NCBI GenBank assembly: GCA_964431655.1
Contig: CAYSKJ010000001.1
Span: forward strand, 13,984-77,983
Origin: an uncultured bacterium
GTDB taxonomy: Bacteria; CAYMEV01
DNA: 64,000 nt
Direction: 5' to 3'
The notes under the pieces: model-generated
What the model was told of the DNA's origin: nothing
The model's database searches: none
The model's input: only the letters and a program-made list of their open reading frames with translations
In this document: one piece after another, positions 30,792 through 64,000 of the stretch
How the letters are laid out: every line of letters starts with the position of its first letter
Position numbering within the stretch: position 1 is the stretch's first letter
Translations under genes and position numbers: made by a program

Positions 30792-32141
30792 TTAAATATT
30801 CCTGTCCGGCCATTTCTGTTTTTTATAAGGTATATAAAGGACAAGCCCCTTTAGCATGGTTGTTATATGTATTGCTATCCATACACCGATTACCCTGTAG
30901 TCGAGCAGCACAGCCAGCAGATAGGCTATGGGGATTCTCAGGGCTGTTATGGGTGTATTAATAAGGAGTACAGGCAGTGTATTGCCGGAACCCTGGAAGG
31001 CTCCGGACAGGATTATCTCAAGGCTGTGGAAGAATAGAACCATGTACAGTATTCTGATATATACAGTGCAGTAGCTTATTACCAGCATATTATCCGTAAA
31101 GAGAGAAAATACCCAGGGGGCGAAAAGGAAAAGCAGTGTGCCAGTAGTATAAGCCCCTGCATTAGCAAGGATAACTGAATGCCTCACAGATTCCCTTGCT
31201 TTCCGGGGCTGGCCTGCACCGAGATTCTGCCCTACCATGGACATGGTCGCCTGGGAGAATCCGAAAAATATAAAGTAGGTCATGCTTTCAACCTTGTGCA
31301 CCAGGCCCATGGAAGCGATTGCTTCTGTTCCGAATCTCGAGAGTATGCTTGAAATAAAAATATATATGGATGAAAAGAGAAACCCGTTGATGGAGGGCGG
31401 AAAGCCTATCTTCAATATCTTTTTTATTATCTCAGAATAATAGCTTAAAGGCCGCCTTAAACCTGAGGCACGGTACCTGCTCAGAAAATTCAGATTCAAT
31501 ACCCGGTATGCCATCACGCATCCCGATATACGTGAAATTACTGTTGCCAGAGCAGCGCCCCGGATGCCCATTTCGGGGAAGAAAAACCACCCGAAGATCA
31601 GTATCGGGTCAAGGATTATATTTATTATCAGGCTTGTTATAAGTATCTTAAAAAATACAATATTATTGCCTATTGCATTGAATGTATTGCCGAGGACCTG
31701 ATAGAAGAACAGAAAAAAGGAGCTTATTATCATGATGCTTGTATAGGTAACCCCCTGCGAGCTGACAAGGGAGTCGGAGGTCATGAATCTGAATAACAGG
31801 GGTATTACCCAAAGCCCCGTTAATATGAAAAGTACGCTAAGTACAGCGCACAGTACCGCCGAGGTCCTGAATACATCAACAGAGCTTTCAAAGTTTTTCT
31901 CGCCTATTCTCCTGGCAATGATCGAGGTCTGGCCGGTGGCAATAATGCTCCCTATGCTCATTATACCCCATAGAATAAAGGATGAAACTGATATGGCAGC
32001 TATGCTGTGATGCCCTAACTTCCCTATCCAGAATATATCAATGAGCTCGAAGGCTGATTGAAACACCATCATCCCTATTGCCGGAAAGGCAAGGCGCAAA
32101 ATGTTCCTGTTCAATGAGCCTGTTGTCAGATCCCTGTACAT
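30792..32141 (-). CDS. MATE family multidrug/sodium efflux transporter
   Basis: 449 aa, 12 predicted TM helices, MATE N-terminus (NILRLAFPAIGMMVFQSAFELIDIFWIGKLG); 51 nt upstream of the rSAM-SPASM gene on the same strand. Confidence 0.9.
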   Translation of the reverse strand: MYRDLTTGSLNRNILRLAFPAIGMMVFQSAFELIDIFWIGKLGHHSIAAISVSSFILWGIMSIGSIIATGQTSIIARRIGEKNFESSVDVFRTSAVLCAVLSVLFILTGLWVIPLLFRFMTSDSLVSSQGVTYTSIMIISSFFLFFYQVLGNTFNAIGNNIVFFKILITSLIINIILDPILIFGWFFFPEMGIRGAALATVISRISGCVMAYRVLNLNFLSRYRASGLRRPLSYYSEIIKKILKIGFPPSINGFLFSSIYIFISSILSRFGTEAIASMGLVHKVESMTYFIFFGFSQATMSMVGQNLGAGQPRKARESVRHSVILANAGAYTTGTLLFLFAPWVFSLFTDNMLVISYCTVYIRILYMVLFFHSLEIILSGAFQGSGNTLPVLLINTPITALRIPIAYLLAVLLDYRVIGVWIAIHITTMLKGLVLYIPYKKQKWPDRNI

Positions 32142-32247
32142 GATGAATAATCTTATTAATGGAAAAAGCGGTTAATTGCAAATGAAAAATTTGCCGAAGT
32201 ATGAGCTGCATATTATGCCTCACAAAGCTGAATATCAAATTTAAATA

Positions 32248-32276
32248 TTGACATAAAAAAGATATACGGTTAACAT
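32248..32276 (+). promoter_or_regulatory. Candidate sigma-70 promoter for ileS (TTGACA-17-TAACAT)
   Basis: TTGACA at 32248-32253, 17-nt spacer, TAACAT at 32271-32276, about 38 nt upstream of the ileS ATG; identical copy at 56809-56837. Confidence 0.4.
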
Positions 32277-32313
32277 ACCCTGTCATTTTATCATTATTAG
32301 CTGGAGGCTCGAT

Positions 32314-35082
32314 ATGGACAGTCAAAAAATAAAGGAGACCCTTAATCTTCCAAGGACAGGATTTCCCATGAAGGCGAATCTGTCTGCCAACGAACCGAAA
32401 ATACTGGAATTCTGGGAGAAAGAGGGTATTTATCATGCGATAAGGGAAAATAAATCAGGCCTGCCAAAATTCATACTTCATGACGGCCCGCCTTATGCTA
32501 CAGGCCATATACATATCGGCACAGCCCTCAACAAGGTTTTAAAGGATTTTATTGTTAAATATAAAAATATTACAGGTTTTGACGCACCCTATGTTCCTGG
32601 CTGGGATTGCCACGGGCTGCCCATTGAGAATAAGGTTGAAAAAACCATGAAAGATAAAAAGGAATCCCTTTCAAAACTTGAGATTCGGAAAAGATGCTAT
32701 GATTATGCCGTATCCTATGTTGATATAATGCGTGAGGAATTCAAGAGGCTGGGAGTTCTGGGCCGGTGGGAAGAACCCTATCTGACCCTGAACCCTGTTT
32801 ATGAGGCGGTTATCCTCAGGGTTCTCGCATCAGCAGTCAGGCAGGGGTATGTCTACCGCCAGCTCAAACCCATACACTGGTGCATGGGGTGTACAACCGC
32901 CCTGGCAGAGGCGGAGCTTGAATATTCGGATGCAGAATCGGATTCCATATTCGTGAGGTTTGCTCTCAAGAGGGCAGGTATTGCAAGTCCCCTTAAGGAA
33001 TATGAAGGCAGAGAAAATGTCTTCTTTATGATCTGGACCACCACTCCCTGGACCATACCTGCAAATATGGCCCTGGCAGTCCATCCGGACCTGGATTACG
33101 GCATTTACAGCGTTGACGGTGAGTTGCTTATACTTGCCAGTGAGCTGAAGGATAGCCTTGAATCAAAACTGGGTATCGGCTCTTTTAAGCTGTTGAAACA
33201 GTTCAGGGGCAATATGCTGGAAGGGGATATCGCCCGGCATCCCCTTATAGACAGGGAGTCTGCAGTAGTTCTGGCAAACTATGTAACCCTTGAACAGGGT
33301 TCAGGTATTGTGCATACAGCACCGGGGCACGGCCAGGAAGATTATCAGACCGGACAGAAATACAATATAGAAACCTTCTGCCCGGTGGATGAAAAGGGGA
33401 GATTCACCAGCGGATTCGCACCCTTTGAGGGGGTCAATGTCTTTGAATCAAACCCCGGTATAGTACAGATGCTCAAAGACAGGGGCATGTTATTGAAAAG
33501 CGAGAGCTTTTCCCATTCCTATCCCCATTGCTGGAGATGCAAAAAACCTGTTATATTCAGGGCGACAGAGCAGTGGTTTATAAATATTGACCACAACGGC
33601 CTGAGAAAAAAAGCCCTGGACAGTATCCGGAGCGTTGACTGGATACCAGGCTGGGGTATGAACAGGATATATGCCATGATAGAGAACAGACCCGACTGGT
33701 GCATTTCAAGGCAGAGAAACTGGGGAGTTCCCATCGTTGCAGTAAAGTGCAGTGACTGCGGAGAGATAAGCATCGATGCTGACCTTATAGACAGGGTAGC
33801 GGATATTGTTGAAAAAGAAGGTATAGGTATCTATTTTGAAAAGAATATAAGGGAAATAATCCCCGGTTTGAAATGCCCGCGGTGCGAATCGCATAATATA
33901 ATACAGGAAGAGGACATACTGGATGTATGGTTTGAATCCGGGGTATCCCATAAGGCTGTTCTGACAACCAATGAGGAGCTGTCCTGGCCTTCGGACCTGT
34001 ATCTTGAAGGTAGCGACCAGCACAGGGGATGGTTCAATTCTTCCCTAATACTTTCACTGATATCGGAAAAGACCCCCCCTTACAGGCAGGTACTGACCCA
34101 TGGTTTTGTCGTTGATGAGCAGGGGAAAAAGATGTCCAAGTCTCTGGGTAATTTTATCAGCCATGAGGATATAATCGGAAAGTACGGCGGAGACATACTT
34201 AGGATGTGGGTTGCATCCGAGGATTACAGGGAGGATATAAGGGTATCCAGAAACATCATTGACAATCTTTCGGAAAGCTACAGGAAGATAAGAAACACCT
34301 TCCGCTTTGCACTTTCAAATCTCTATGATTTCAACCCTGATAAGGACATGGTAAGGCTTGAGAATATGACCGGCCTGGATAAATTCTATTTTGAAAAGTA
34401 TCTAGCTATTGCAGAAAGGATAAAATCTGCCTACGAGAAGTACAATTTCCATATTGTTGTCCAGAACCTTGTCAACTTTGCCAGCATTGACCTGTCAAGC
34501 CAGTACCATGACATTATCAAGGACAGGCTCTATGTAAACAGGGCTGACAGCAGGGAGAGGAGGAGCACCCAGAGCTGCATATACAGGATAATAAAGGGGC
34601 TTCTGACCCTTTCTTCCCCGATTCTGTCCTTTACAGCCGACGAAGCATGGCAGTATCTTCCTAAATCATCCAAAGATCCTGTCAGCGTTCATCTCTCCAC
34701 TCTCGGGGAATATGGTTTTCATTTTGAAAAAACAGGTATTTTTGAGGACATTTTGAGCATAAGGTCTGCAGTATCCAAAAAGCTGGAAATCCTGAGGAAA
34801 GAGAATGTAATCGGCTTGTCCCTGGATTCTCATGTGAGCATCAAAATACCTGCAAGGCTCTTTGAACAGCTCAATTGCATGAAAGATGAGCTGAAAGAGA
34901 TATTGATGATATCGGAAATAGAGCTTGTTAAATCAGAGGAAAAAGAAAAGGATACTGTTGAGGAATCAATAGAAATATCTGCAAAAAAGCATGACGGGGA
35001 GAAATGCCCCCGATGCTGGCGGTATTTTTACAAAAGCCAGGAACTGTGTCCGAGATGTTCCTCCATAATAAAAGATATTTAG
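32314..35082 (+). CDS. ileS: Isoleucyl-tRNA synthetase
   Basis: PYATGHIHIGT (HIGH), KMSKS, GWDCHGLPIE editing-domain junction and C-terminal CPRCW...CPRC zinc finger; strongly matches bacterial IleRS; followed by lspA as in the classical ileS-lspA linkage. Confidence 0.95.
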   Translation: MDSQKIKETLNLPRTGFPMKANLSANEPKILEFWEKEGIYHAIRENKSGLPKFILHDGPPYATGHIHIGTALNKVLKDFIVKYKNITGFDAPYVPGWDCHGLPIENKVEKTMKDKKESLSKLEIRKRCYDYAVSYVDIMREEFKRLGVLGRWEEPYLTLNPVYEAVILRVLASAVRQGYVYRQLKPIHWCMGCTTALAEAELEYSDAESDSIFVRFALKRAGIASPLKEYEGRENVFFMIWTTTPWTIPANMALAVHPDLDYGIYSVDGELLILASELKDSLESKLGIGSFKLLKQFRGNMLEGDIARHPLIDRESAVVLANYVTLEQGSGIVHTAPGHGQEDYQTGQKYNIETFCPVDEKGRFTSGFAPFEGVNVFESNPGIVQMLKDRGMLLKSESFSHSYPHCWRCKKPVIFRATEQWFINIDHNGLRKKALDSIRSVDWIPGWGMNRIYAMIENRPDWCISRQRNWGVPIVAVKCSDCGEISIDADLIDRVADIVEKEGIGIYFEKNIREIIPGLKCPRCESHNIIQEEDILDVWFESGVSHKAVLTTNEELSWPSDLYLEGSDQHRGWFNSSLILSLISEKTPPYRQVLTHGFVVDEQGKKMSKSLGNFISHEDIIGKYGGDILRMWVASEDYREDIRVSRNIIDNLSESYRKIRNTFRFALSNLYDFNPDKDMVRLENMTGLDKFYFEKYLAIAERIKSAYEKYNFHIVVQNLVNFASIDLSSQYHDIIKDRLYVNRADSRERRSTQSCIYRIIKGLLTLSSPILSFTADEAWQYLPKSSKDPVSVHLSTLGEYGFHFEKTGIFEDILSIRSAVSKKLEILRKENVIGLSLDSHVSIKIPARLFEQLNCMKDELKEILMISEIELVKSEEKEKDTVEESIEISAKKHDGEKCPRCWRYFYKSQELCPRCSSIIKDI

Positions 35083-35083
35083 C

Positions 35084-35614
35084 ATGATGTTTAAGAAAAA
35101 CCCTGCAGGGGCATTTGTGTTATTCCTGCTGTCAGTTGCTGTTATTGACCAGCTGAGCAAGTTTTATATTCTCAGGCTAAATGCTCTGGACCCTGGGGCT
35201 CTGCTTTCGGGTATCCCTATAATAATCGGTTTCCTCGAGATAACCCTGACCTATAATCAGGGCATCATTTTTGGTTTTCTTGGGAATGCCAATAATCTGG
35301 TGATACTAACACTTAATATATTCATACTTGCAGGGGTATTTATCTTTGTTGCCATGGATATAAAAAGGGGCAGGACGGGGCTTTTATATCTCGGGGGCTT
35401 CGGTCTGATTCTGGGAGGAGCCCTGGGGAATATCCTTGACAGGATAATTGTAGGAAAGGTCATAGATTTCATTAAGGTATATATAACATCTGATTTTATA
35501 TGGCCAATATTCAATATTGCCGATTCAGCAATAACCGTCGGAATAATCCTGGTATTTGCTGATATGATTTTTTTTGACAGGGAGAGTAAGATAAATGCAC
35601 CCGATACTGCTTGA
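35084..35614 (+). CDS. lspA: Lipoprotein signal peptidase (signal peptidase II)
   Basis: Conserved NQGIIFGFL and FNIADSAITVG motifs with catalytic Asp residues; 4 TM helices; 176 aa. Confidence 0.9.
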   Translation: MMFKKNPAGAFVLFLLSVAVIDQLSKFYILRLNALDPGALLSGIPIIIGFLEITLTYNQGIIFGFLGNANNLVILTLNIFILAGVFIFVAMDIKRGRTGLLYLGGFGLILGGALGNILDRIIVGKVIDFIKVYITSDFIWPIFNIADSAITVGIILVFADMIFFDRESKINAPDTA

Positions 35615-36371
35615 TCTTGGATTTATAAGGCTCCATACCTATGGTTTCTGTATTTCACTGGGTGTAGTGGCTGCTTTATTGCTGGCCATAAAGCTGGGCA
35701 GGTCCTTTGATATAAGCAGGGATTTCATACTGGATCTTACGATAAAACTGCTTATATCGGGGATCATTGGCTCGAAAATCCTCTATATCATGGTATATTA
35801 CCAGGAATTTATCCAGGAACCTGTCAGGATAATCAGGGATTTCAGGTCTGGATTTGTTTTTTTCGGGGGACTTATCCTTGCATTTATAATGGGCTATCTG
35901 CATGTCAGAAAGAGTAAATACAGGATGGGCAATCTTTTTGATGTTTTCGCCCCTGCATTGGCCCTTGCCCATTCCTTTGGAAGGCTCGGGTGCACCATGG
36001 CTGGATGCTGTTATGGAAAGGCGGTGCCCCATGATGCCTTTTATACCCTGCGTTTCTGCCATCCTGAAACCATTGCCTGTCCTGTATGCAGGCCTCTTAT
36101 TGCGACACAGCCCATAAGTTCGATATTTCTCTTTCTGCTGTCGATGCTTATGCTATCTCTTTTTTTTAAATGGAAAAAGCGTTATCCTGGAAGCCTATTA
36201 TTTATCTATGCATCAACTTATTCCCTTTTCAGGTTTATTATTGAGTTTTTCCGCGGTGATGACCGCGGGTTCCTTTTCGGGCTTTCAACATCCCAGGTCA
36301 TCAGCATGGCTGTATTTCCGGCAGCCATTTACCTTCTTTTCAAATATAATATACGCAGAAAGAAACCATGA
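35595..36371 (+). CDS. lgt: Prolipoprotein diacylglyceryl transferase
   Basis: Lgt N-terminus (PILLDLGFIRLHTYGFCISLGVVAA); Lgt signature region GRLGCTMAGCCYGK; overlaps lspA by 20 nt. Confidence 0.9.
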   Translation: MHPILLDLGFIRLHTYGFCISLGVVAALLLAIKLGRSFDISRDFILDLTIKLLISGIIGSKILYIMVYYQEFIQEPVRIIRDFRSGFVFFGGLILAFIMGYLHVRKSKYRMGNLFDVFAPALALAHSFGRLGCTMAGCCYGKAVPHDAFYTLRFCHPETIACPVCRPLIATQPISSIFLFLLSMLMLSLFFKWKKRYPGSLLFIYASTYSLFRFIIEFFRGDDRGFLFGLSTSQVISMAVFPAAIYLLFKYNIRRKKP

Positions 36372-37357
36372 GTGCGGATATCCCGACAAAAGGGTCTGTT
36401 ATGTGCCGAAAACCCGGCAGTGAATTATCAGGTCTCAGGCTTGATATTGCTCTTTCAGAAATGGATCCGGGTATTTCAAGGAATTTTGCACAATATCTTA
36501 TAATATCCGGATATGTTTTTGTCAATGGCAGGCAGGAAATTCGCAAATCCCAGAGACTGAATGCTGAAGATATCGTAGAGGTCTTGGAATATGAAAAAAA
36601 ATCTGATGCCGTTCCCCTGCCAAAAAAAGCAGAGCTGAATATACTGTATCAGGATGAATTCCTTCTGGTCATTGACAAGCCTTCAGGTCTAACAGTCCAT
36701 CCAGGATCCGGCAATACCCAGGACACCCTTGTTAATGCCCTGCTCTATTACCGGGAAATGTTCAGCATACGCCTTTCAGATATGCAGGGCATATCCCGGT
36801 GCGGTATAGTGCACAGGCTTGACAAGGATACATCCGGTGCCATGCTTATTGCCAAGGAAAATGAGGCGCACCTTAAGCTTCAAGGACTGTTCAAGGAGCG
36901 CAGGGTCAAGAAGGAATACCTTGCGGTGGTATGGGGCGAGATAATGCCGAACGAACTTATAATTGACAGCCCTATTGGAAGGCACCCCAAAAACAGGCTT
37001 AAATTTTCATCAAAATCATCCTTTCCGAAGGATGCATTTACAAAAGTGAGGGTATTCAGCCGTTTCAACGGATTCAGCCTCATTAAGGCCTATCCCCTTA
37101 CCGGCCGGACCCACCAGATCCGTGTTCACATGAAAGAGGCCGGGTTTCCCATTGTCGGAGATAAAGTATATTCTGCCAAAAGGACACAGAGTATGGAGAA
37201 ATATTTTGCCAGAAACAGTACGGTTTTAAGACTGATGCTTCACAGTCAAAGGATTTTATTTCCCCATCCCTTTAAAAGTGATATATTAATTATCAGTTCA
37301 CCGGTTCCAGCTGATTACAGGGAGTGTTTAAGGGTTTTAAGGCATTATAATGGTTAG
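36368..37357 (+). CDS. RluA-family 23S rRNA pseudouridine synthase (RluD-like, N-terminal S4 domain)
   Basis: Catalytic motif GIVHRLDKDTSGAMLIAK; S4-like N-terminus; 4-nt overlap with lgt stop. Confidence 0.85.
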   Translation: MSADIPTKGSVMCRKPGSELSGLRLDIALSEMDPGISRNFAQYLIISGYVFVNGRQEIRKSQRLNAEDIVEVLEYEKKSDAVPLPKKAELNILYQDEFLLVIDKPSGLTVHPGSGNTQDTLVNALLYYREMFSIRLSDMQGISRCGIVHRLDKDTSGAMLIAKENEAHLKLQGLFKERRVKKEYLAVVWGEIMPNELIIDSPIGRHPKNRLKFSSKSSFPKDAFTKVRVFSRFNGFSLIKAYPLTGRTHQIRVHMKEAGFPIVGDKVYSAKRTQSMEKYFARNSTVLRLMLHSQRILFPHPFKSDILIISSPVPADYRECLRVLRHYNG

Positions 37358-38603
37358 AGTCCTAATAGTCGATGATTCAGAAATTATCCGGAAACAGCTC
37401 AGGGCATTTCTGGAGACGAAGAAGCGCTATGAGGTTCAGGAGGCTTCAGACGGCCTGGAAGCAATACAAAAGCTGAAGGCTGACCCTGATTTTGACATCA
37501 TTGCCCTTGATGTCGAGATGCCGCGTCTTAACGGGCTGGAAACCCTCAGGGGAATATCTTCCATGGATCTGGATGCTGTGTGTATCATGATAACATCAAG
37601 GAGTGACTTTAATACCGTAATACAGGCCGTACGTCAAGGAGCCTATGATTATGTTACAAAACCCATTGATTTTGAAAACCTCCTTCTTGTAATTGATCGC
37701 GCCCTGGAGAAAAGGGCTCTGGAAAAGGAGAACAAGAGGCTGATTGATGATCTGCAGAAGATGAACAGCAATCTTACCCAGCTGGTAAGGCAGAGAACAA
37801 AACATCTTGCAGAAGCGGAACAGAAGGCCAGAACCTATGCCAACCAGCTTGAAAAGGCCTATGAAGAGCTTAAAAGCCTTGATAAAATGAAGGGCGATTT
37901 TATTTCCCTTGCCTCCCACGAGCTCCGGACGCCTCTTGTTCTTATCAAGGGCTACAGCGAGATACTTCTAAGGAAAAGATACGGGCATATGTCGGAGCAG
38001 GTAGAGAATGCCCTGAAGATACAGAGCGAGAATATAGAAAAACTCAGTGAGATAATAAATGAAATATTAATGATAAATAACCTTGAGATTCTCGAGAATA
38101 TCTACAAAGAAGAAAATATTGACATTAATCCGGTCCTTGTGGAGGCCTATGAGTCATTAAAGGAATTTATAAATCTCCGCAATCAGGTCTTCAAGTCCGA
38201 GATCAGTGAAATCCCCCTTATTGTAAAAGGCAATAATAAACTGCTTTTTTATGCTGTCCATAACCTTCTTATCAATGCCATCAAATTTACCCCCGATGGC
38301 GGTGTAATAGTATTAAGAAGCGCAATGAAGAATTCAGAAAGCCCTTCCAAAGCCCTGATATCTGTCTCTGATACAGGCATAGGCATCCCCCAGGAATCTC
38401 TGGAAAAAATATTTACCCCTTTTTACGAAGTAAAGGATATTAAGTACCACAGCTCAGGAAAATTTCAGTTCCTTTCCGGAGGGCTCGGAGTAGGACTGTC
38501 TATAGCAAAAAACATTGTAAACCAGCATTCAGGCAGGATTGCTGTAGAAAGCTCCCTGGGAAAGGGAAGTACCTTCTATATCACCCTTCCCCTCGTGAAA
38601 TAA
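37350..38603 (+). CDS. Hybrid response regulator / histidine kinase (REC-HisKA-HATPase_c)
   Basis: REC domain MVRVLIVDDSEIIRKQL...IALDVEMPRLNG; H-box SHELRTPL; G-boxes DTGIGIP and GGLGVGLSI. Confidence 0.85.
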   Translation: MVRVLIVDDSEIIRKQLRAFLETKKRYEVQEASDGLEAIQKLKADPDFDIIALDVEMPRLNGLETLRGISSMDLDAVCIMITSRSDFNTVIQAVRQGAYDYVTKPIDFENLLLVIDRALEKRALEKENKRLIDDLQKMNSNLTQLVRQRTKHLAEAEQKARTYANQLEKAYEELKSLDKMKGDFISLASHELRTPLVLIKGYSEILLRKRYGHMSEQVENALKIQSENIEKLSEIINEILMINNLEILENIYKEENIDINPVLVEAYESLKEFINLRNQVFKSEISEIPLIVKGNNKLLFYAVHNLLINAIKFTPDGGVIVLRSAMKNSESPSKALISVSDTGIGIPQESLEKIFTPFYEVKDIKYHSSGKFQFLSGGLGVGLSIAKNIVNQHSGRIAVESSLGKGSTFYITLPLVK

Positions 38604-38700
38604 CCCCTTTTCCCGCAGGGAACACCTCTGATAAATATTGACAACAGGTCCAATCAAAATAGGATTAGACTGTAGCTTCAATATAAAAGGGTGTCATCCT

Positions 38701-41700
38701 ATGTACGCAGGCATCGATGCAGGTTCGCTGTCATTCAAAATTGTCCTGGCTGAAGATGAGGGGCTCCTGAGAAAAACGGTTTATCATGAAGGAGAGCCCC
38801 TAAAAGCATTCAATAGTATTCTTGAGCAATTCAGGCTGGATAACGCAGTCATTACCGGCAGATATGGCGCGCTTATTTCCGGCAGGTACAGAATACCTTC
38901 CGCTGACCCTGTCAGAGCCCTGCTTTACAACCAGCAGTCCAGTGTAAGCCGGATTGTGGATATCGGTGCATCCAGACTCTCCATGATAGAGCTTAAGGGG
39001 AAAAAGTTCCACAGGTTAAATACCAATTCCCTTTGTGCATCAGGAACAGGTGCCTTCCTTGACCAGCAGATGAAACGGATGGGACTGGATTACAGCATGC
39101 TGGAAGGCATTGACTTCATTGAAGACCCCCCTTCCATTGCAACCCGTTGTGCAGTCTTTGCAAAAAGCGACCTTATACACAGACAGCAGGAGGGTTACCC
39201 GGTAAAGATGCTGTGGAACGGCCTGGTGCGTGGAATGGCTGAATCAGCATTTTCCACCCTTTTCAGGGGGAAAAATATCAGCGGGGACATTCTTCTGATA
39301 GGCGGTCTGGCAAACAACCGCATATTTGCAGAATACCTTAAAAGGCTCTGCGATCCAGCTTGTCTTGTAGTTCCCCAGTATTCATCCTATTACCAGGCTG
39401 AGTCAAACCTCCTTTACTGTCAGAATAATAAGGAGCATAAAAAATATTTTTCTATCCCCGGAATTGCAAAAACCCGGGAAAAGCCGCTTTTAATTGAAAC
39501 AGAAAAAATAGAAGGGCATTTCTGGGAAATGGACTGCTACGGCAATGAGGCTGATATATATTCACTTAAAAAGGGACTGAAAGAAGAAGTCTTTATCGGG
39601 GTGGATATCGGCTCCACCAGCACCAAGCTCGTTGCCGGCGACAGGAATGGAAAGATACTTTTTGGACTTTATAACCGGACCGGGGGCAGGCCTGTTGAAG
39701 CTATGAAAAACCTTCTCAGGGGTATAAAAAGGCTTATTCATGAGTACTCCCTGGAACTTCGGATAAAAGCCATCGGGACCACAGGAAGCGGGAGAAAACT
39801 GGTAGGGCATTTTATCGGAGCCGATATGATAATAAATGAGATTACAGCCCATTTAAAAGGAGCAGTCAAGGAATACCCGCGCATACAGACGATTTTTGAG
39901 ATAGGAGGCCAGGATTCCAAGTATATATCGGTTGAGGACGGCTGGATGAAAGATGCCAGTATGAACTATGTATGTGCCGCCGGCACAGGATCTTTCATAG
40001 AGGAACAAGCGCTGAACCTCGGCCTGAAACTGGAAGATATAGAAAAGCTTTGCAACGGAGTCAGCCCTCCGGTATCCAGCGACCGGTGCACCGTTTTCAT
40101 GGAGCAGGATGCTGTTCAGCTTCTTATAAACGGTTTTTCAAAGAGCGAAGTAATGGCCAGCATGCTTTATTCTGTATGCAGGAATTATCTTCACAGGGTT
40201 GTGCAGTCAAGACCTGTCAGGGAACCAGTTCTCTTTCTGGGTGCTACATCGAAAAATAAAGGTCTGGTCAGGGCTTTTGAAAATATCATGCAGAAAAGGG
40301 TATATACATCTGTCTATGGCCATATAACCGGTGCTATAGGTGTTGCAGAGGCTCTAAGGAAAACCCCCCCCCTTGAAACAAGATTCCGGGGGCTGGGTAT
40401 CAGCGAAGCCGAAGTGGATCTGTCAGAGGCCAACTGCGGGCTGTGTGCCAACAGATGCAGGATTACACATATGAATATGCCTTCCCTGGGCAAGGCCTTG
40501 AGCTGGGGCTATATGTGCGGTAAAGAGCCCGAAGAAACATCAGCCAGGAAAGTTCATGCCCTGAGATATTTAAAAGAGCTTGAATCCTCCACCTTTGATT
40601 CAACAGAAAAAAGAAACGCCGGGGATGCCGTCTATTACCCCAGAGCCCTGCAGTTCTATTCCCATTATCCCCTGTGGGAGCATTTTTTCAAACAGCTTGG
40701 CATCAATATTATACCCTCCATGCAGTCAGGGGATAAAACAGCCCGGCTGAGCAGGGAGTATGCCATATCCGATTTCTGCTATCCCCTCAAGCTTTCCATC
40801 GGCCATGTCGTGAACCTGGTAAAGGATAATAAAATGCCTGTATTTCTGCCCTGCAATATACAGGATACCCCTAACCCGAAGACCAGGAAGAGCCATTTCT
40901 GCCCGATCAGCCAGGGACTTCCGTCAATAATAAAAAATACCCTCCAGTACAATAATCTACCGAGTGATTTTCTCTTAAGCCCGGTTGTAGATTTTGAAAA
41001 AAGCCTGGAGGAAAACTCTGAAAGTATCTGCAGAGAGCTTCGCAGGCATTTCAGCTTTTCCCGTAAATCAGTAAAGGAAGCCTTCAGAAAAGCAGTCATA
41101 TACTATGATAGCATGATCTTGAAAAGAATAAAAAGGGGCAGGGAGATTATTACAGAGCATCGTAAAAAGAAAGTCAATAGCCTGGTTCTGCTGGGAAGGC
41201 CTTATAATATCTTTGACGGGGTTTTGAACCAGAAAATTCCCAGGAGCTTAAGCCGGTTCGGCCTTGATATTATCCCGGGAGATTTCATCCCGGTTGAGCG
41301 TTCTGACATAGGACCCGATACCTCTGACCTGTACTGGGCCTATAGCCAGCATCTTGCAGCATGTGCAGAATTCATCCGGGATGAGCCGGGGCTTTATCCG
41401 GTATACCTGACAAATTTCAGCTGCGGTCCTGATTCTTTTCTCTTAAGTCTTCTGGAAAAGATTATGGGTAAAAAACCCTTCCTGGTGCTGGAGCTTGATG
41501 AGCTCGGAGGTGATGCCGGCTATATTACAAGGCTGGAAGCCTTCTATGACAGGATAGAGGCCTGCAGGAACAGATCCCCGGAGAAAGAGGAAAAGCCTTC
41601 CCTGAAGATTAATCTTTGCAGGAGCATAAACGGCCACCGCCTGTTCATACCCCCTATGCACCCCTTTGCCACAAAACTGCTGAGCCATGCCTTCAGGGCC

Positions 41701-52389: not shown

Positions 52390-52405
52390 TTTGTACTTAA
52401 ACCTG

Positions 52406-55980: not shown

Positions 55981-56002
55981 GATATTTTCAAGCAGTGATT
56001 CA

Positions 56003-56702
56003 AGCTTAAAGGCCGCCTTAAACCTGAGGCACGGTACCTGCTCAGAAAATTCAGATTCAATACCCGGTATGCCATCACGCATCCCGATATACGTGAAATT
56101 ACTGTTGCCAGAGCAGCGCCCCGGATGCCCATTTCGGGGAAGAAAAACCACCCGAAGATCAGTATCGGGTCAAGGATTATATTTATTATCAGGCTTGTTA
56201 TAAGTATCTTAAAAAATACAATATTATTGCCTATTGCATTGAATGTATTGCCGAGGACCTGATAGAAGAACAGAAAAAAGGAGCTTATTATCATGATGCT
56301 TGTATAGGTAACCCCCTGCGAGCTGACAAGGGAGTCGGAGGTCATGAATCTGAATAACAGGGGTATTACCCAAAGCCCCGTTAATATGAAAAGTACGCTA
56401 AGTACAGCGCACAGTACCGCCGAGGTCCTGAATACATCAACAGAGCTTTCAAAGTTTTTCTCGCCTATTCTCCTGGCAATGATCGAGGTCTGGCCGGTGG
56501 CAATAATGCTCCCTATGCTCATTATACCCCATAGAATAAAGGATGAAACTGATATGGCAGCTATGCTGTGATGCCCTAACTTCCCTATCCAGAATATATC
56601 AATGAGCTCGAAGGCTGATTGAAACACCATCATCCCTATTGCCGGAAAGGCAAGGCGCAAAATGTTCCTGTTCAATGAGCCTGTTGTCAGATCCCTGTAC
56701 AT
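56003..56702 (-). pseudogene. 5-prime-truncated duplicate of the MATE efflux gene (N-terminal 233 codons only, cut at the duplication junction)
   Basis: Identical to codons 1-233 of the MATE gene at 30792..32141; reading frame runs into unrelated sequence after 56003 and terminates at 55905 (chimeric 265-aa ORF). Confidence 0.85.
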
Positions 56703-56874
56703 GATGAATAATCTTATTAATGGAAAAAGCGGTTAATTGCAAATGAAAAATTTGCCGAAGTATGAGCTGCATATTATGCCTCACAAAGCTGAATATCAAA
56801 TTTAAATATTGACATAAAAAAGATATACGGTTAACATACCCTGTCATTTTATCATTATTAGCTGGAGGCTCGAT

Positions 56875-59643
56875 ATGGACAGTCAAAAAATAAAGGAGAC
56901 CCTTAATCTTCCAAGGACAGGATTTCCCATGAAGGCGAATCTGTCTGCCAACGAACCGAAAATACTGGAATTCTGGGAGAAAGAGGGTATTTATCATGCG
57001 ATAAGGGAAAATAAATCAGGCCTGCCAAAATTCATACTTCATGACGGCCCGCCTTATGCTACAGGCCATATACATATCGGCACAGCCCTCAACAAGGTTT
57101 TAAAGGATTTTATTGTTAAATATAAAAATATTACAGGTTTTGACGCACCCTATGTTCCTGGCTGGGATTGCCACGGGCTGCCCATTGAGAATAAGGTTGA
57201 AAAAACCATGAAAGATAAAAAGGAATCCCTTTCAAAACTTGAGATTCGGAAAAGATGCTATGATTATGCCGTATCCTATGTTGATATAATGCGTGAGGAA
57301 TTCAAGAGGCTGGGAGTTCTGGGCCGGTGGGAAGAACCCTATCTGACCCTGAACCCTGTTTATGAGGCGGTTATCCTCAGGGTTCTCGCATCAGCAGTCA
57401 GGCAGGGGTATGTCTACCGCCAGCTCAAACCCATACACTGGTGCATGGGGTGTACAACCGCCCTGGCAGAGGCGGAGCTTGAATATTCGGATGCAGAATC
57501 GGATTCCATATTCGTGAGGTTTGCTCTCAAGAGGGCAGGTATTGCAAGTCCCCTTAAGGAATATGAAGGCAGAGAAAATGTCTTCTTTATGATCTGGACC
57601 ACCACTCCCTGGACCATACCTGCAAATATGGCCCTGGCAGTCCATCCGGACCTGGATTACGGCATTTACAGCGTTGACGGTGAGTTGCTTATACTTGCCA
57701 GTGAGCTGAAGGATAGCCTTGAATCAAAACTGGGTATCGGCTCTTTTAAGCTGTTGAAACAGTTCAGGGGCAATATGCTGGAAGGGGATATCGCCCGGCA
57801 TCCCCTTATAGACAGGGAGTCTGCAGTAGTTCTGGCAAACTATGTAACCCTTGAACAGGGTTCAGGTATTGTGCATACAGCACCGGGGCACGGCCAGGAA
57901 GATTATCAGACCGGACAGAAATACAATATAGAAACCTTCTGCCCGGTGGATGAAAAGGGGAGATTCACCAGCGGATTCGCACCCTTTGAGGGGGTCAATG
58001 TCTTTGAATCAAACCCCGGTATAGTACAGATGCTCAAAGACAGGGGCATGTTATTGAAAAGCGAGAGCTTTTCCCATTCCTATCCCCATTGCTGGAGATG
58101 CAAAAAACCTGTTATATTCAGGGCGACAGAGCAGTGGTTTATAAATATTGACCACAACGGCCTGAGAAAAAAAGCCCTGGACAGTATCCGGAGCGTTGAC
58201 TGGATACCAGGCTGGGGTATGAACAGGATATATGCCATGATAGAGAACAGACCCGACTGGTGCATTTCAAGGCAGAGAAACTGGGGAGTTCCCATCGTTG
58301 CAGTAAAGTGCAGTGACTGCGGAGAGATAAGCATCGATGCTGACCTTATAGACAGGGTAGCGGATATTGTTGAAAAAGAAGGTATAGGTATCTATTTTGA
58401 AAAGAATATAAGGGAAATAATCCCCGGTTTGAAATGCCCGCGGTGCGAATCGCATAATATAATACAGGAAGAGGACATACTGGATGTATGGTTTGAATCC
58501 GGGGTATCCCATAAGGCTGTTCTGACAACCAATGAGGAGCTGTCCTGGCCTTCGGACCTGTATCTTGAAGGTAGCGACCAGCACAGGGGATGGTTCAATT
58601 CTTCCCTAATACTTTCACTGATATCGGAAAAGACCCCCCCTTACAGGCAGGTACTGACCCATGGTTTTGTCGTTGATGAGCAGGGGAAAAAGATGTCCAA
58701 GTCTCTGGGTAATTTTATCAGCCATGAGGATATAATCGGAAAGTACGGCGGAGACATACTTAGGATGTGGGTTGCATCCGAGGATTACAGGGAGGATATA
58801 AGGGTATCCAGAAACATCATTGACAATCTTTCGGAAAGCTACAGGAAGATAAGAAACACCTTCCGCTTTGCACTTTCAAATCTCTATGATTTCAACCCTG
58901 ATAAGGACATGGTAAGGCTTGAGAATATGACCGGCCTGGATAAATTCTATTTTGAAAAGTATCTAGCTATTGCAGAAAGGATAAAATCTGCCTACGAGAA
59001 GTACAATTTCCATATTGTTGTCCAGAACCTTGTCAACTTTGCCAGCATTGACCTGTCAAGCCAGTACCATGACATTATCAAGGACAGGCTCTATGTAAAC
59101 AGGGCTGACAGCAGGGAGAGGAGGAGCACCCAGAGCTGCATATACAGGATAATAAAGGGGCTTCTGACCCTTTCTTCCCCGATTCTGTCCTTTACAGCCG
59201 ACGAAGCATGGCAGTATCTTCCTAAATCATCCAAAGATCCTGTCAGCGTTCATCTCTCCACTCTCGGGGAATATGGTTTTCATTTTGAAAAAACAGGTAT
59301 TTTTGAGGACATTTTGAGCATAAGGTCTGCAGTATCCAAAAAGCTGGAAATCCTGAGGAAAGAGAATGTAATCGGCTTGTCCCTGGATTCTCATGTGAGC
59401 ATCAAAATACCTGCAAGGCTCTTTGAACAGCTCAATTGCATGAAAGATGAGCTGAAAGAGATATTGATGATATCGGAAATAGAGCTTGTTAAATCAGAGG
59501 AAAAAGAAAAGGATACTGTTGAGGAATCAATAGAAATATCTGCAAAAAAGCATGACGGGGAGAAATGCCCCCGATGCTGGCGGTATTTTTACAAAAGCCA
59601 GGAACTGTGTCCGAGATGTTCCTCCATAATAAAAGATATTTAG
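56875..59643 (+). CDS. ileS: Isoleucyl-tRNA synthetase, second identical copy
   Basis: 922-aa translation identical to 32314..35082. Confidence 0.9.
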   Translation: MDSQKIKETLNLPRTGFPMKANLSANEPKILEFWEKEGIYHAIRENKSGLPKFILHDGPPYATGHIHIGTALNKVLKDFIVKYKNITGFDAPYVPGWDCHGLPIENKVEKTMKDKKESLSKLEIRKRCYDYAVSYVDIMREEFKRLGVLGRWEEPYLTLNPVYEAVILRVLASAVRQGYVYRQLKPIHWCMGCTTALAEAELEYSDAESDSIFVRFALKRAGIASPLKEYEGRENVFFMIWTTTPWTIPANMALAVHPDLDYGIYSVDGELLILASELKDSLESKLGIGSFKLLKQFRGNMLEGDIARHPLIDRESAVVLANYVTLEQGSGIVHTAPGHGQEDYQTGQKYNIETFCPVDEKGRFTSGFAPFEGVNVFESNPGIVQMLKDRGMLLKSESFSHSYPHCWRCKKPVIFRATEQWFINIDHNGLRKKALDSIRSVDWIPGWGMNRIYAMIENRPDWCISRQRNWGVPIVAVKCSDCGEISIDADLIDRVADIVEKEGIGIYFEKNIREIIPGLKCPRCESHNIIQEEDILDVWFESGVSHKAVLTTNEELSWPSDLYLEGSDQHRGWFNSSLILSLISEKTPPYRQVLTHGFVVDEQGKKMSKSLGNFISHEDIIGKYGGDILRMWVASEDYREDIRVSRNIIDNLSESYRKIRNTFRFALSNLYDFNPDKDMVRLENMTGLDKFYFEKYLAIAERIKSAYEKYNFHIVVQNLVNFASIDLSSQYHDIIKDRLYVNRADSRERRSTQSCIYRIIKGLLTLSSPILSFTADEAWQYLPKSSKDPVSVHLSTLGEYGFHFEKTGIFEDILSIRSAVSKKLEILRKENVIGLSLDSHVSIKIPARLFEQLNCMKDELKEILMISEIELVKSEEKEKDTVEESIEISAKKHDGEKCPRCWRYFYKSQELCPRCSSIIKDI

Positions 59644-59644
59644 C

Positions 59645-60175
59645 ATGATGTTTAAGAAAAACCCTGCAGGGGCATTTGTGTTATTCCTGCTGTCAGTTGC
59701 TGTTATTGACCAGCTGAGCAAGTTTTATATTCTCAGGCTAAATGCTCTGGACCCTGGGGCTCTGCTTTCGGGTATCCCTATAATAATCGGTTTCCTCGAG
59801 ATAACCCTGACCTATAATCAGGGCATCATTTTTGGTTTTCTTGGGAATGCCAATAATCTGGTGATACTAACACTTAATATATTCATACTTGCAGGGGTAT
59901 TTATCTTTGTTGCCATGGATATAAAAAGGGGCAGGACGGGGCTTTTATATCTCGGGGGCTTCGGTCTGATTCTGGGAGGAGCCCTGGGGAATATCCTTGA
60001 CAGGATAATTGTAGGAAAGGTCATAGATTTCATTAAGGTATATATAACATCTGATTTTATATGGCCAATATTCAATATTGCCGATTCAGCAATAACCGTC
60101 GGAATAATCCTGGTATTTGCTGATATGATTTTTTTTGACAGGGAGAGTAAGATAAATGCACCCGATACTGCTTGA
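59645..60175 (+). CDS. lspA: Lipoprotein signal peptidase, second identical copy
   Basis: Identical to 35084..35614. Confidence 0.9.
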   Translation: MMFKKNPAGAFVLFLLSVAVIDQLSKFYILRLNALDPGALLSGIPIIIGFLEITLTYNQGIIFGFLGNANNLVILTLNIFILAGVFIFVAMDIKRGRTGLLYLGGFGLILGGALGNILDRIIVGKVIDFIKVYITSDFIWPIFNIADSAITVGIILVFADMIFFDRESKINAPDTA

Positions 60176-60932
60176 TCTTGGATTTATAAGGCTCCATACC
60201 TATGGTTTCTGTATTTCACTGGGTGTAGTGGCTGCTTTATTGCTGGCCATAAAGCTGGGCAGGTCCTTTGATATAAGCAGGGATTTCATACTGGATCTTA
60301 CGATAAAACTGCTTATATCGGGGATCATTGGCTCGAAAATCCTCTATATCATGGTATATTACCAGGAATTTATCCAGGAACCTGTCAGGATAATCAGGGA
60401 TTTCAGGTCTGGATTTGTTTTTTTCGGGGGACTTATCCTTGCATTTATAATGGGCTATCTGCATGTCAGAAAGAGTAAATACAGGATGGGCAATCTTTTT
60501 GATGTTTTCGCCCCTGCATTGGCCCTTGCCCATTCCTTTGGAAGGCTCGGGTGCACCATGGCTGGATGCTGTTATGGAAAGGCGGTGCCCCATGATGCCT
60601 TTTATACCCTGCGTTTCTGCCATCCTGAAACCATTGCCTGTCCTGTATGCAGGCCTCTTATTGCGACACAGCCCATAAGTTCGATATTTCTCTTTCTGCT
60701 GTCGATGCTTATGCTATCTCTTTTTTTTAAATGGAAAAAGCGTTATCCTGGAAGCCTATTATTTATCTATGCATCAACTTATTCCCTTTTCAGGTTTATT
60801 ATTGAGTTTTTCCGCGGTGATGACCGCGGGTTCCTTTTCGGGCTTTCAACATCCCAGGTCATCAGCATGGCTGTATTTCCGGCAGCCATTTACCTTCTTT
60901 TCAAATATAATATACGCAGAAAGAAACCATGA
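60156..60932 (+). CDS. lgt: Prolipoprotein diacylglyceryl transferase, second identical copy
   Basis: Identical to 35595..36371. Confidence 0.9.
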   Translation: MHPILLDLGFIRLHTYGFCISLGVVAALLLAIKLGRSFDISRDFILDLTIKLLISGIIGSKILYIMVYYQEFIQEPVRIIRDFRSGFVFFGGLILAFIMGYLHVRKSKYRMGNLFDVFAPALALAHSFGRLGCTMAGCCYGKAVPHDAFYTLRFCHPETIACPVCRPLIATQPISSIFLFLLSMLMLSLFFKWKKRYPGSLLFIYASTYSLFRFIIEFFRGDDRGFLFGLSTSQVISMAVFPAAIYLLFKYNIRRKKP

Positions 60933-61918
60933 GTGCGGATATCCCGACAAAAGGGTCTGTTATGTGCCGAAAACCCGGCAGTGAATTATCAGGTCTCAGG
61001 CTTGATATTGCTCTTTCAGAAATGGATCCGGGTATTTCAAGGAATTTTGCACAATATCTTATAATATCCGGATATGTTTTTGTCAATGGCAGGCAGGAAA
61101 TTCGCAAATCCCAGAGACTGAATGCTGAAGATATCGTAGAGGTCTTGGAATATGAAAAAAAATCTGATGCCGTTCCCCTGCCAAAAAAAGCAGAGCTGAA
61201 TATACTGTATCAGGATGAATTCCTTCTGGTCATTGACAAGCCTTCAGGTCTAACAGTCCATCCAGGATCCGGCAATACCCAGGACACCCTTGTTAATGCC
61301 CTGCTCTATTACCGGGAAATGTTCAGCATACGCCTTTCAGATATGCAGGGCATATCCCGGTGCGGTATAGTGCACAGGCTTGACAAGGATACATCCGGTG
61401 CCATGCTTATTGCCAAGGAAAATGAGGCGCACCTTAAGCTTCAAGGACTGTTCAAGGAGCGCAGGGTCAAGAAGGAATACCTTGCGGTGGTATGGGGCGA
61501 GATAATGCCGAACGAACTTATAATTGACAGCCCTATTGGAAGGCACCCCAAAAACAGGCTTAAATTTTCATCAAAATCATCCTTTCCGAAGGATGCATTT
61601 ACAAAAGTGAGGGTATTCAGCCGTTTCAACGGATTCAGCCTCATTAAGGCCTATCCCCTTACCGGCCGGACCCACCAGATCCGTGTTCACATGAAAGAGG
61701 CCGGGTTTCCCATTGTCGGAGATAAAGTATATTCTGCCAAAAGGACACAGAGTATGGAGAAATATTTTGCCAGAAACAGTACGGTTTTAAGACTGATGCT
61801 TCACAGTCAAAGGATTTTATTTCCCCATCCCTTTAAAAGTGATATATTAATTATCAGTTCACCGGTTCCAGCTGATTACAGGGAGTGTTTAAGGGTTTTA
61901 AGGCATTATAATGGTTAG
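60929..61918 (+). CDS. RluA-family pseudouridine synthase, second identical copy
   Basis: Identical to 36368..37357. Confidence 0.85.
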   Translation: MSADIPTKGSVMCRKPGSELSGLRLDIALSEMDPGISRNFAQYLIISGYVFVNGRQEIRKSQRLNAEDIVEVLEYEKKSDAVPLPKKAELNILYQDEFLLVIDKPSGLTVHPGSGNTQDTLVNALLYYREMFSIRLSDMQGISRCGIVHRLDKDTSGAMLIAKENEAHLKLQGLFKERRVKKEYLAVVWGEIMPNELIIDSPIGRHPKNRLKFSSKSSFPKDAFTKVRVFSRFNGFSLIKAYPLTGRTHQIRVHMKEAGFPIVGDKVYSAKRTQSMEKYFARNSTVLRLMLHSQRILFPHPFKSDILIISSPVPADYRECLRVLRHYNG

Positions 61919-63164
61919 AGTCCTAATAGTCGATGATTCAGAAATTATCCGGAAACAGCTCAGGGCATTTCTGGAGACGAAGAAGCGCTATGAGGTTCAG
62001 GAGGCTTCAGACGGCCTGGAAGCAATACAAAAGCTGAAGGCTGACCCTGATTTTGACATCATTGCCCTTGATGTCGAGATGCCGCGTCTTAACGGGCTGG
62101 AAACCCTCAGGGGAATATCTTCCATGGATCTGGATGCTGTGTGTATCATGATAACATCAAGGAGTGACTTTAATACCGTAATACAGGCCGTACGTCAAGG
62201 AGCCTATGATTATGTTACAAAACCCATTGATTTTGAAAACCTCCTTCTTGTAATTGATCGCGCCCTGGAGAAAAGGGCTCTGGAAAAGGAGAACAAGAGG
62301 CTGATTGATGATCTGCAGAAGATGAACAGCAATCTTACCCAGCTGGTAAGGCAGAGAACAAAACATCTTGCAGAAGCGGAACAGAAGGCCAGAACCTATG
62401 CCAACCAGCTTGAAAAGGCCTATGAAGAGCTTAAAAGCCTTGATAAAATGAAGGGCGATTTTATTTCCCTTGCCTCCCACGAGCTCCGGACGCCTCTTGT
62501 TCTTATCAAGGGCTACAGCGAGATACTTCTAAGGAAAAGATACGGGCATATGTCGGAGCAGGTAGAGAATGCCCTGAAGATACAGAGCGAGAATATAGAA
62601 AAACTCAGTGAGATAATAAATGAAATATTAATGATAAATAACCTTGAGATTCTCGAGAATATCTACAAAGAAGAAAATATTGACATTAATCCGGTCCTTG
62701 TGGAGGCCTATGAGTCATTAAAGGAATTTATAAATCTCCGCAATCAGGTCTTCAAGTCCGAGATCAGTGAAATCCCCCTTATTGTAAAAGGCAATAATAA
62801 ACTGCTTTTTTATGCTGTCCATAACCTTCTTATCAATGCCATCAAATTTACCCCCGATGGCGGTGTAATAGTATTAAGAAGCGCAATGAAGAATTCAGAA
62901 AGCCCTTCCAAAGCCCTGATATCTGTCTCTGATACAGGCATAGGCATCCCCCAGGAATCTCTGGAAAAAATATTTACCCCTTTTTACGAAGTAAAGGATA
63001 TTAAGTACCACAGCTCAGGAAAATTTCAGTTCCTTTCCGGAGGGCTCGGAGTAGGACTGTCTATAGCAAAAAACATTGTAAACCAGCATTCAGGCAGGAT
63101 TGCTGTAGAAAGCTCCCTGGGAAAGGGAAGTACCTTCTATATCACCCTTCCCCTCGTGAAATAA
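61911..63164 (+). CDS. Hybrid response regulator / histidine kinase, second identical copy
   Basis: Identical to 37350..38603. Confidence 0.85.
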   Translation: MVRVLIVDDSEIIRKQLRAFLETKKRYEVQEASDGLEAIQKLKADPDFDIIALDVEMPRLNGLETLRGISSMDLDAVCIMITSRSDFNTVIQAVRQGAYDYVTKPIDFENLLLVIDRALEKRALEKENKRLIDDLQKMNSNLTQLVRQRTKHLAEAEQKARTYANQLEKAYEELKSLDKMKGDFISLASHELRTPLVLIKGYSEILLRKRYGHMSEQVENALKIQSENIEKLSEIINEILMINNLEILENIYKEENIDINPVLVEAYESLKEFINLRNQVFKSEISEIPLIVKGNNKLLFYAVHNLLINAIKFTPDGGVIVLRSAMKNSESPSKALISVSDTGIGIPQESLEKIFTPFYEVKDIKYHSSGKFQFLSGGLGVGLSIAKNIVNQHSGRIAVESSLGKGSTFYITLPLVK

Positions 63165-63261
63165 CCCCTTTTCCCGCAGGGAACACCTCTGATAAATATT
63201 GACAACAGGTCCAATCAAAATAGGATTAGACTGTAGCTTCAATATAAAAGGGTGTCATCCT

Positions 63262-64000
63262 ATGTACGCAGGCATCGATGCAGGTTCGCTGTCATTCAAA
63301 ATTGTCCTGGCTGAAGATGAGGGGCTCCTGAGAAAAACGGTTTATCATGAAGGAGAGCCCCTAAAAGCATTCAATAGTATTCTTGAGCAATTCAGGCTGG
63401 ATAACGCAGTCATTACCGGCAGATATGGCGCGCTTATTTCCGGCAGGTACAGAATACCTTCCGCTGACCCTGTCAGAGCCCTGCTTTACAACCAGCAGTC
63501 CAGTGTAAGCCGGATTGTGGATATCGGTGCATCCAGACTCTCCATGATAGAGCTTAAGGGGAAAAAGTTCCACAGGTTAAATACCAATTCCCTTTGTGCA
63601 TCAGGAACAGGTGCCTTCCTTGACCAGCAGATGAAACGGATGGGACTGGATTACAGCATGCTGGAAGGCATTGACTTCATTGAAGACCCCCCTTCCATTG
63701 CAACCCGTTGTGCAGTCTTTGCAAAAAGCGACCTTATACACAGACAGCAGGAGGGTTACCCGGTAAAGATGCTGTGGAACGGCCTGGTGCGTGGAATGGC
63801 TGAATCAGCATTTTCCACCCTTTTCAGGGGGAAAAATATCAGCGGGGACATTCTTCTGATAGGCGGTCTGGCAAACAACCGCATATTTGCAGAATACCTT
63901 AAAAGGCTCTGCGATCCAGCTTGTCTTGTAGTTCCCCAGTATTCATCCTATTACCAGGCTGAGTCAAACCTCCTTTACTGTCAGAATAATAAGGAGCATA
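63262..64000 (+). CDS. CoA-substrate-specific enzyme activase, second copy, truncated by the window end
   Basis: Identical to 38701..39439; the ORF continues off the window. Confidence 0.8.
   Translation, partial: MYAGIDAGSLSFKIVLAEDEGLLRKTVYHEGEPLKAFNSILEQFRLDNAVITGRYGALISGRYRIPSADPVRALLYNQQSSVSRIVDIGASRLSMIELKGKKFHRLNTNSLCASGTGAFLDQQMKRMGLDYSMLEGIDFIEDPPSIATRCAVFAKSDLIHRQQEGYPVKMLWNGLVRGMAESAFSTLFRGKNISGDILLIGGLANNRIFAEYLKRLCDPACLVVPQYSSYYQAESNLLYCQNNKEH

Follow-up and report, generated by a model that had tools for sequence, protein, structure and literature searches.

A probable head-to-tail duplication of a 24,561-bp segment, joined at a 10-bp microhomology, in an uncultured bacterium related to Candidatus Sumerlaeota

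Introduction

Duplications flanked by insertion sequences (IS), rrn operons or repetitive extragenic palindromic (REP) elements form by RecA-dependent unequal crossing-over. Other amplifications arise at much shorter identities: in stress-induced lac amplification in Escherichia coli, 31 junctions were located in identities of 4–15 bp lying 7–32 kb apart, and long-distance template switching between replication forks was invoked to explain them (PMC1428787). In the same species, unstable lspA-containing amplifications lead to heteroresistance to LspA inhibitors; a modest rise in dosage is adaptive, and the amplifications are lost without selection. These amplicons measure from 89 kb to 3 Mb, lie mostly between long direct repeats (homologous recombination) and reach 4–11 copies by depth (PMC7482066). 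Here we describe a locus of the lac type of geometry in a 64,000-nt stretch of DNA from an uncultured bacterium (hereafter the window; contig CAYSKJ010000001.1 of assembly GCA_964431655.1, positions 13,984 to 77,983, forward strand). According to our analysis, the window very likely carries a real head-to-tail duplication, and possibly a higher-order amplification, of a 24,561-bp segment, which was generated via a 10-bp microhomology in a bacterium related to Candidatus Sumerlaeota.

Geometry of the repeat and its junction

When the window was compared with itself, positions 31442..39439 and 56003..64000 proved to be the same at 7998 of 7998 bases (0 mismatches), at an offset of 24561. The identity breaks precisely at 31441/56002 (T versus A) and persists to base 64000, which is the edge of the window. 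Every one of the 7979 repeated 20-mers found lies at offset 24561, so this is the sole self-repeat of the window, and chance cannot be the cause of an exact match of 8 kb. The first-pass annotation had reported a direct repeat at this offset, exact to the window edge, and the base-by-base comparison bears it out. The two copies follow one another in the same orientation (head to tail) without a spacer, the offset being equal to the length of the unit. The elements of the repeat are as follows:

31442..56002: duplicated unit, copy 1 (24,561 bp)
56003..64000: copy 2, first 7,998 bp, ending with the window; same as 31442..39439
30792..32141, minus strand: intact MATE efflux gene (449 amino acids, aa), spanning the left boundary
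31442..31451, plus strand: left parental microhomology AGCTTAAAGG, inside the intact MATE gene; native context ...CAGAATAAT/AGCTTAAAGG/CCGCC, the same in four single-copy contigs
56003..56012, plus strand: novel junction, ...GTGATTCA/AGCTTAAAGG/CCGCC; end of the unit to the left of it, start of the unit to the right
55905..56702, minus strand: junction product 1, a truncated MATE open reading frame (ORF) with residues 1–233 (first MatE repeat only) and a 32-aa out-of-frame tail
54853..56082, minus strand: junction product 2, a chimeric 409-aa ORF in which 24 novel residues precede cyclase residues 197–581

Since the intact MATE gene runs through the left boundary, 31441/31442 is a native sequence. 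Upstream of copy 1 there are 31,441 bp of unique sequence, which independent contigs also span; a terminal overlap of the contig is ruled out, because copy 1 begins 31 kb inside this corroborated contiguous sequence. The only novel junction in the window is 56002/56003, as predicted for a head-to-tail duplication. It cuts two minus-strand genes, with copy 2 contributing MATE codons 1–233 and copy 1 contributing a cyclase gene without its 5' end. Thus the left edge is native and the junction is defined, while the native right edge was read only in other contigs, the right end of the array lying beyond the window.

The single-copy allele and the 10-bp microhomology

Related contigs were recovered from public metagenome assemblies by exact-protein look-ups with genes of the window, and their identity to the window was 99.7–99.99%. 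Among them, the following carry the segment in an undisturbed context:

DRR835045_23659 (69.6 kb): single copy, left flank, unit and native right flank
ERZ27252298 k141_128107 (71.6 kb): single copy, left flank, unit and native right flank
ERZ27252292 k141_64219 (25.4 kb): single copy, left flank, unit and native right flank
SRR29564167_185845 (40.5 kb): native left edge; right edge not read

In the native right flank the unit is followed by genes for a full-length 581-aa FHA-GAF-cyclase, a 793-aa Ser/Thr kinase, a 345-aa protein and an FHA protein, together with a SAM hydroxide adenosyltransferase-like protein and an XerC/D-like recombinase. The contig CAYMEV010000041 of a Candidatus Sumerlaeota metagenome-assembled genome (MAG) is collinear with this flank, and its proteins are 56–80% identical; the closest match among contigs of GTDB representatives is a Sumerlaeota MAG, at 76% amino acid identity. 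Given the single-copy contigs and this collinearity, the single copy with a full-length cyclase is ancestral, the original order being the MATE gene, the unit, and then the full-length FHA-GAF-cyclase and Ser/Thr kinase genes.

The contigs with the native right flank made it possible to compare both parental sites with the junction, all of which were read directly:

Left site, longer context: CAGAATAAT/AGCTTAAAGG/CCGCCTTAAACC
Right site (native right flank, other contigs only): ...GTGATTCA/AGCTTAAAGG/TCTTATTGACC; longer context AGCAGTGATTCA/AGCTTAAAGG/TCTTATTGACC
Junction, longer context: AGCAGTGATTCA/AGCTTAAAGG/CCGCCTTAAACC

The 10-bp sequence AGCTTAAAGG thus occurs at both ancestral breakpoints, which are separated by 24,561 bp, and a single time at the junction, which at the base level is a clean crossover within it. 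The identity of the parental sites is limited to these 10 bp, as both the preceding base (T versus A) and the following base (C versus T) differ. Within the window the sequence occurs at the junction and the left site only, with no third occurrence. Two arbitrary breakpoints would have 10 bp in common with a probability of about 1e-6, and the identity is therefore taken as a signature of the mechanism. A 5-bp microhomology (AGCTT) had been proposed earlier and has to be replaced by the 10-bp one; the shorter estimate was due to the right parental site lying outside the window, its flank being available only from other contigs.

Scans of the whole window revealed no tRNA and no Rfam family. Within ~1 kb of either parental site or of the junction there were no long repeats, only short direct and inverted repeats at chance level, and the unit is not bracketed by direct repeats in the size range (tens to thousands of bp) that a duplication by homologous recombination (long-repeat, R-D-R) would require. 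According to Pfam and NCBIfam, there is no transposase, integrase, relaxase or replication gene among the genes of the unit; a partition gene is also absent from it. Neither genes for its own replication, integration or transfer nor att-like ends mark the segment as a mobile or extrachromosomal element, and the earlier statement that no mobile element, inverted repeat or rRNA lies at the boundaries holds. The only tyrosine recombinase is the XerC/D-like one, 5.7 kb outside the right breakpoint. Site-specific recombination by this enzyme was considered and rejected, since past the 10 bp the sites have no arms in common, and synteny of the gene extends to the distant Sumerlaeota relative. A HindIII cloning artefact was rejected as well: the junction reads A/AGCTT, yet the native right site reads CA/AGCTT and the left one T/AGCTT, and shotgun metagenomes yielded the junction repeatedly.

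Recurrence of the junction in other assemblies

At least 11 other assemblies, produced by three pipelines (ENA/MEGAHIT, JGI and Logan), contain exactly the same junction sequence. Four ENA/MEGAHIT contigs cross ...GTGATTCA/AGCTTAAAGGCCGCC...:

ERZ27252285 k141_144274
ERZ27252297 k141_11398
ERZ27252303 k141_187623
ERZ27252282 k141_156012

Using the junction-specific 409-aa chimeric ORF as a marker, nine contigs were obtained, which added the assemblies ERZ27252287, ERZ27252280, JGI 3300033428, JGI 3300033166 and Logan SRR10872669 and SRR10872667; the other three of the nine belong to ERZ27252285, ERZ27252297 and ERZ27252303. In addition, the Logan contig SRR10872666_3684 has a length of 24,591 nt (20 + 24,561 + 10, i.e., 24,561 + k-1) with the same 30-mer at both ends, and is a closed cycle in the k=31 graph. 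Exact scans of JGI metagenome contigs with the right- and left-breakpoint patterns gave no match, although JGI junction contigs exist in the other index.

These data bear on the possibility of a pure assembly or record artefact (a mis-join, a terminal overlap of a circularised contig, or concatenated contigs), in which case no DNA molecule with the junction would exist. Such an origin would agree with the perfect identity of the two copies, with the repeat running off the window edge, and with the source being a MAG-type contig. However, an artefact should be missing from independent assemblies, and the same junction is present to the base in at least 11 others made with MEGAHIT or by JGI and Logan. 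The repeat does not occupy two contig termini, and copy 1 starts 31 kb into sequence that independent contigs span. Random concatenation would produce a clean crossover in a 10-bp identity only at the above-mentioned ~1e-6. Since three assemblers rebuild the same join from several samples, mis-join, terminal overlap and contig concatenation are excluded, and the probability of a pure artefact appears practically negligible. The "not biological" option of the first-pass annotation (artefact or circularisation) is accordingly rejected for the junction, and survives in a weaker form, namely that the copy number in the record may be the choice of the assembler. Its alternative proposal of a tandem amplification is supported by the junction in at least 11 other assemblies, by the native left boundary and by the single-copy parental alleles.

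Copy number and molecular form

Several points weigh against the interpretation as a chromosomal tandem array of defined copy number. The junction-bearing assemblies all belong to one closely related series (ERZ272522xx, SRR108726xx, JGI 33000331xx/3300033428), and samples are probably shared among the ENA, JGI and Logan sets; the contigs of SRR10872669 and JGI 3300033428, for example, both end at 54781. Hence the event is independent across assemblers and samples, but not across populations. Furthermore, copy number and chromosomal integration rest on the layout of the source contig itself, and the two-copy layout could originate from the resolution of a loop by a short-read assembler. With such assemblers a simple loop can enter a contig one time, and the two copies in the record may therefore not be a measurement. 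A clean two-copy array should lead to breaks of short-read contigs at both branch points of the graph, whereas all 10 linear junction contigs run through them unbroken; a strictly two-copy model fails to explain this.

In the same samples, four contigs of the flanks are 1.6–4.5 kb long, as compared to 13.7–25.4 kb for contigs of the unit, and one flank gene was found in 9 contigs versus 17–19 contigs for the genes of the unit. These figures agree with a depth of the unit far above that of the flanks, and possibly with more than two copies, but low coverage could give the same pattern.

The unbroken contigs would also agree with another explanation, in which the junction is real and the molecule is an extrachromosomal 24.6-kb circle, excised between the 10-bp repeats or shed from an unstable array, that exists beside a single-copy chromosome and was threaded into the contig by the assembler. 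A circle would yield exactly the same junction, the junction contigs cross both branch points as though the native edges were rare, and SRR10872666_3684 is a closed cycle of 24,561 + 30 nt. Nevertheless, a tandem array also gives a cycle in a k=31 graph, and in the source contig the left flank runs physically into the unit, and from there across the junction into the unit once more. Moreover, the unit has no replication, partition, relaxase or integrase gene and contains only housekeeping and signalling genes (ileS, ftsY, lgt, lspA, lnt), so that a circle of this kind could not persist abundantly across many samples. We consider the circle very unlikely, and a tandem duplication remains our preferred interpretation.

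Polymorphism and age of the duplication

The junction allele is dominant in most assemblies of the one series, but is missing from two of that series and from three more divergent strains. The two assemblies, ERZ27252292 and ERZ27252298, are 99.97–99.99% identical to the window and have a single copy, which indicates that the allele is segregating rather than fixed. The same species, at 99.7% identity, was also detected in the unrelated runs DRR835045, SRR29564167 and SRR27911144.

At positions 34838, 34839 and 34909 in ileS the window has G, C and A, whereas every contig of the junction series has C, T and G; the G, C, A variant also occurs in the divergent single-copy strains. The junction is therefore found on at least two slightly different ileS haplotypes, the difference being a cluster of three single-nucleotide polymorphisms (SNPs) within 72 bp. 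AblB (48583-49440) was called as 285 or 261 aa and LspA (35084-35614) as 176 or 175 aa across public assemblies. These length calls were rejected as a haplotype difference, as there is no SNP at the start codons and the variation reflects the choice of start by gene callers.

The 3' end of ileS as a whole (34035-35000; copy 2, 58596-59561) is a SNP hotspot, with ~20 variable sites per 1 kb versus 1–3 per kb elsewhere, and the contigs show mosaic SNP patterns there. This pattern suggests a putative recombination tract or consensus mixing.

The presence of the junction on at least two ileS haplotypes and in many samples would be consistent with an old, fixed segmental duplication in which gene conversion maintains the identity of the copies. 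Against this, ERZ27252292 and ERZ27252298, all more divergent strains and the Sumerlaeota relative have a single copy, and three SNPs within 72 bp are what a single recombination tract or consensus mixing typically leaves. An old and fixed duplication is therefore rather improbable in comparison with a segregating one. Recombination as well as consensus polishing makes tandem copies uniform, and given this, together with the two haplotypes, the earlier reasoning that zero divergence means an event that is either very recent or not biological is unsafe.

Junction products and their possible consequences

The breakpoint in the MATE protein falls at residue 233, between the two MatE repeats (20-180 and 251-408), and that in the cyclase at residue 197, the GAF domain starting from 199 and the FHA domain occupying 42-103. 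In the 409-aa ORF the GAF and Guanylate_cyc domains are intact and the FHA domain is gone; an alternative GTG start is located at 56151. Both breakpoints lie in inter-domain linkers, so the junction ORFs keep whole domains, which could be a coincidence or a filter for tolerated products.

As is general for tandem duplications, no gene should have been lost, with an intact MATE gene at the left end and an intact cyclase gene at the right end, and the layout implies that all genes of the unit are at least doubled in dosage. The truncated cyclase, HD-GYP, TPR and ftsY genes of copy 1 are now downstream of the 5' region of the MATE gene instead of the Ser/Thr-kinase gene. A scan for promoters and terminators at the junction gave consensus-level matches only, which do not count as evidence.

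Genes of the unit and its flanks

The gene list of the unit given previously is correct by Pfam and NCBIfam. In order, the unit contains the 5' part of the MATE gene, ileS, lspA, lgt, an RluA/RluD-family synthase, a response-regulator/histidine-kinase hybrid, a BcrAD/BadFG activase fusion and lnt, followed by a P-type ATPase, ablA (kamA), ablB, a gene for a 168-aa protein, ftsY, a TPR protein, an HD-GYP protein and the GAF-cyclase without its 5' end. The main groups are:

32314..36371, plus strand: ileS-lspA-lgt, copy 1 (TIGR00392, TIGR00077 and TIGR00544, the last borderline); copy 2 at 56875..60932
42768..49440, plus strand: lnt, P-type (type IIA-like) cation ATPase, ablA (lysine 2,3-aminomutase) and ablB (beta-lysine N-acetyltransferase)
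50080..54863, minus strand: ftsY (769 aa), TPR protein (262 aa) and HAMP-HD (HD-GYP-type) protein (560 aa)

The match of ileS to TIGR00392 is above the cut-off, and that of lgt is borderline. The lipoprotein maturation set (lgt, lspA and lnt) and ileS share one 12-kb neighbourhood (32314-36371 and 42768-44291), wholly within the unit. The ATPase belongs to type II, and its ion cannot be assigned. At 38638-42771 (plus strand) there is a 1,377-aa fusion (1,356 aa elsewhere) of BcrAD/BadFG-type activase ATPase domains with DUF2229, with no obvious partner enzyme in the neighbourhood.

The ftsY, TPR and HAMP-HD genes are the downstream part of an operon that is natively headed by the Pkinase and FHA-GAF-cyclase genes. 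This conserved signalling operon (FHA protein, 345-aa protein, Ser/Thr kinase, FHA-GAF-cyclase, HAMP-HD protein of the HD-GYP type, TPR protein and FtsY; positions 547-8342 of contig L018, in the native right flank) is common to the Sumerlaeota MAG, at 56–80% amino acid identity, and is predicted to couple phosphothreonine sensing to the synthesis and breakdown of cyclic nucleotides. FtsY itself (50080-52389, minus strand) is unusually long for a bacterial FtsY at 769 aa, with the NG domain at 494-764 and an N-terminal extension of ~490 aa that includes a weak TPR/YbgF-like stretch (345-418).

In the left flank, genes for a B12-binding radical S-adenosylmethionine (SAM) protein, an FAD-dependent oxidoreductase (DAO family) and a radical SAM/SPASM protein (27027-30740) adjoin the MATE exporter. 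They may represent a small modification cluster or one resembling those for ribosomally synthesized and post-translationally modified peptides (RiPP-like).

Discussion

Our analysis suggests that the duplication would have been founded when two 10-bp direct repeats (AGCTTAAAGG), located inside the MATE transporter gene and inside the FHA-GAF-adenylate/guanylate-cyclase gene, served as the sites of an illegitimate, homology-independent recombination or of template switching. As neither end of the unit has a long flanking repeat, the founding event was not homologous recombination; an unequal sister-strand exchange or a long-distance template switch may have been the first step. The array is presumed to be chromosomal, and copy 2 would be complete (to 80563), followed by the native right flank AGCTTAAAGGTCTTATTGACC with the rest of the FHA-GAF-cyclase gene and the Pkinase gene. 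Once formed, 24.6 kb of perfect homology between the copies permits RecA-dependent expansion and loss of the array.

A more far-reaching scenario can be envisaged, in which a naturally selected amplification, possibly of more than two copies, is maintained in a wild Sumerlaeota-like population, and the junction has given birth to a functional signalling gene, the GAF-cyclase losing its phosphothreonine-binding FHA domain and coming under the MATE promoter. We regard this scenario as doubtful. As hypotheses only, it might be driven by the dosage of ileS, lspA, lgt and lnt against natural inhibitors of Ile-tRNA synthetase or LspA, or, under salt stress, by that of the cation ATPase and of ablAB as osmolyte genes. 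If true, a selected array would be an environmental counterpart of laboratory heteroresistance.

For curation, the repeat should not be "fixed" as a misassembly, since the junction is real, and the copy number should be treated as unverified. The locus represents a clean natural case, from an uncultured lineage, of a microhomology-mediated duplication that is segregating; most studies of events of this kind concern laboratory enterobacteria. With both parental sites, the junction and the ancestral allele in hand, the rise and fall of an unstable allele could be tracked by the ratios of junction reads across the existing sample series. The mechanism is well known and the instance is new; no new mechanism or kind of element is involved, and the case would not surprise a specialist.

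In comparison to duplications flanked by IS, rrn or REP elements, the product (a tandem direct repeat) and the later route of expansion and loss are the same, whereas the locus described here has no long repeats at its ends. With the lspA amplicons of E. coli (PMC7482066) it shares a segment that carries lspA, here along with ileS, lgt and lnt; it differs in its 24.6-kb unit and its 10-bp junction. The locus also resembles the lac amplicons (PMC1428787). Those were obtained under laboratory selection, and the present allele comes from a wild uncultured population via metagenome assemblies; the microhomology is A/T-rich here and G-rich there. Both systems nevertheless consist of head-to-tail direct repeats with a novel junction, apparently a single one in the present case, and a short identity at both parental sites, and they share the same geometry, with 4–15 bp of identity over 7–32 kb in the lac amplicons and 10 bp over 24.6 kb here, and no IS or rrn at the ends.

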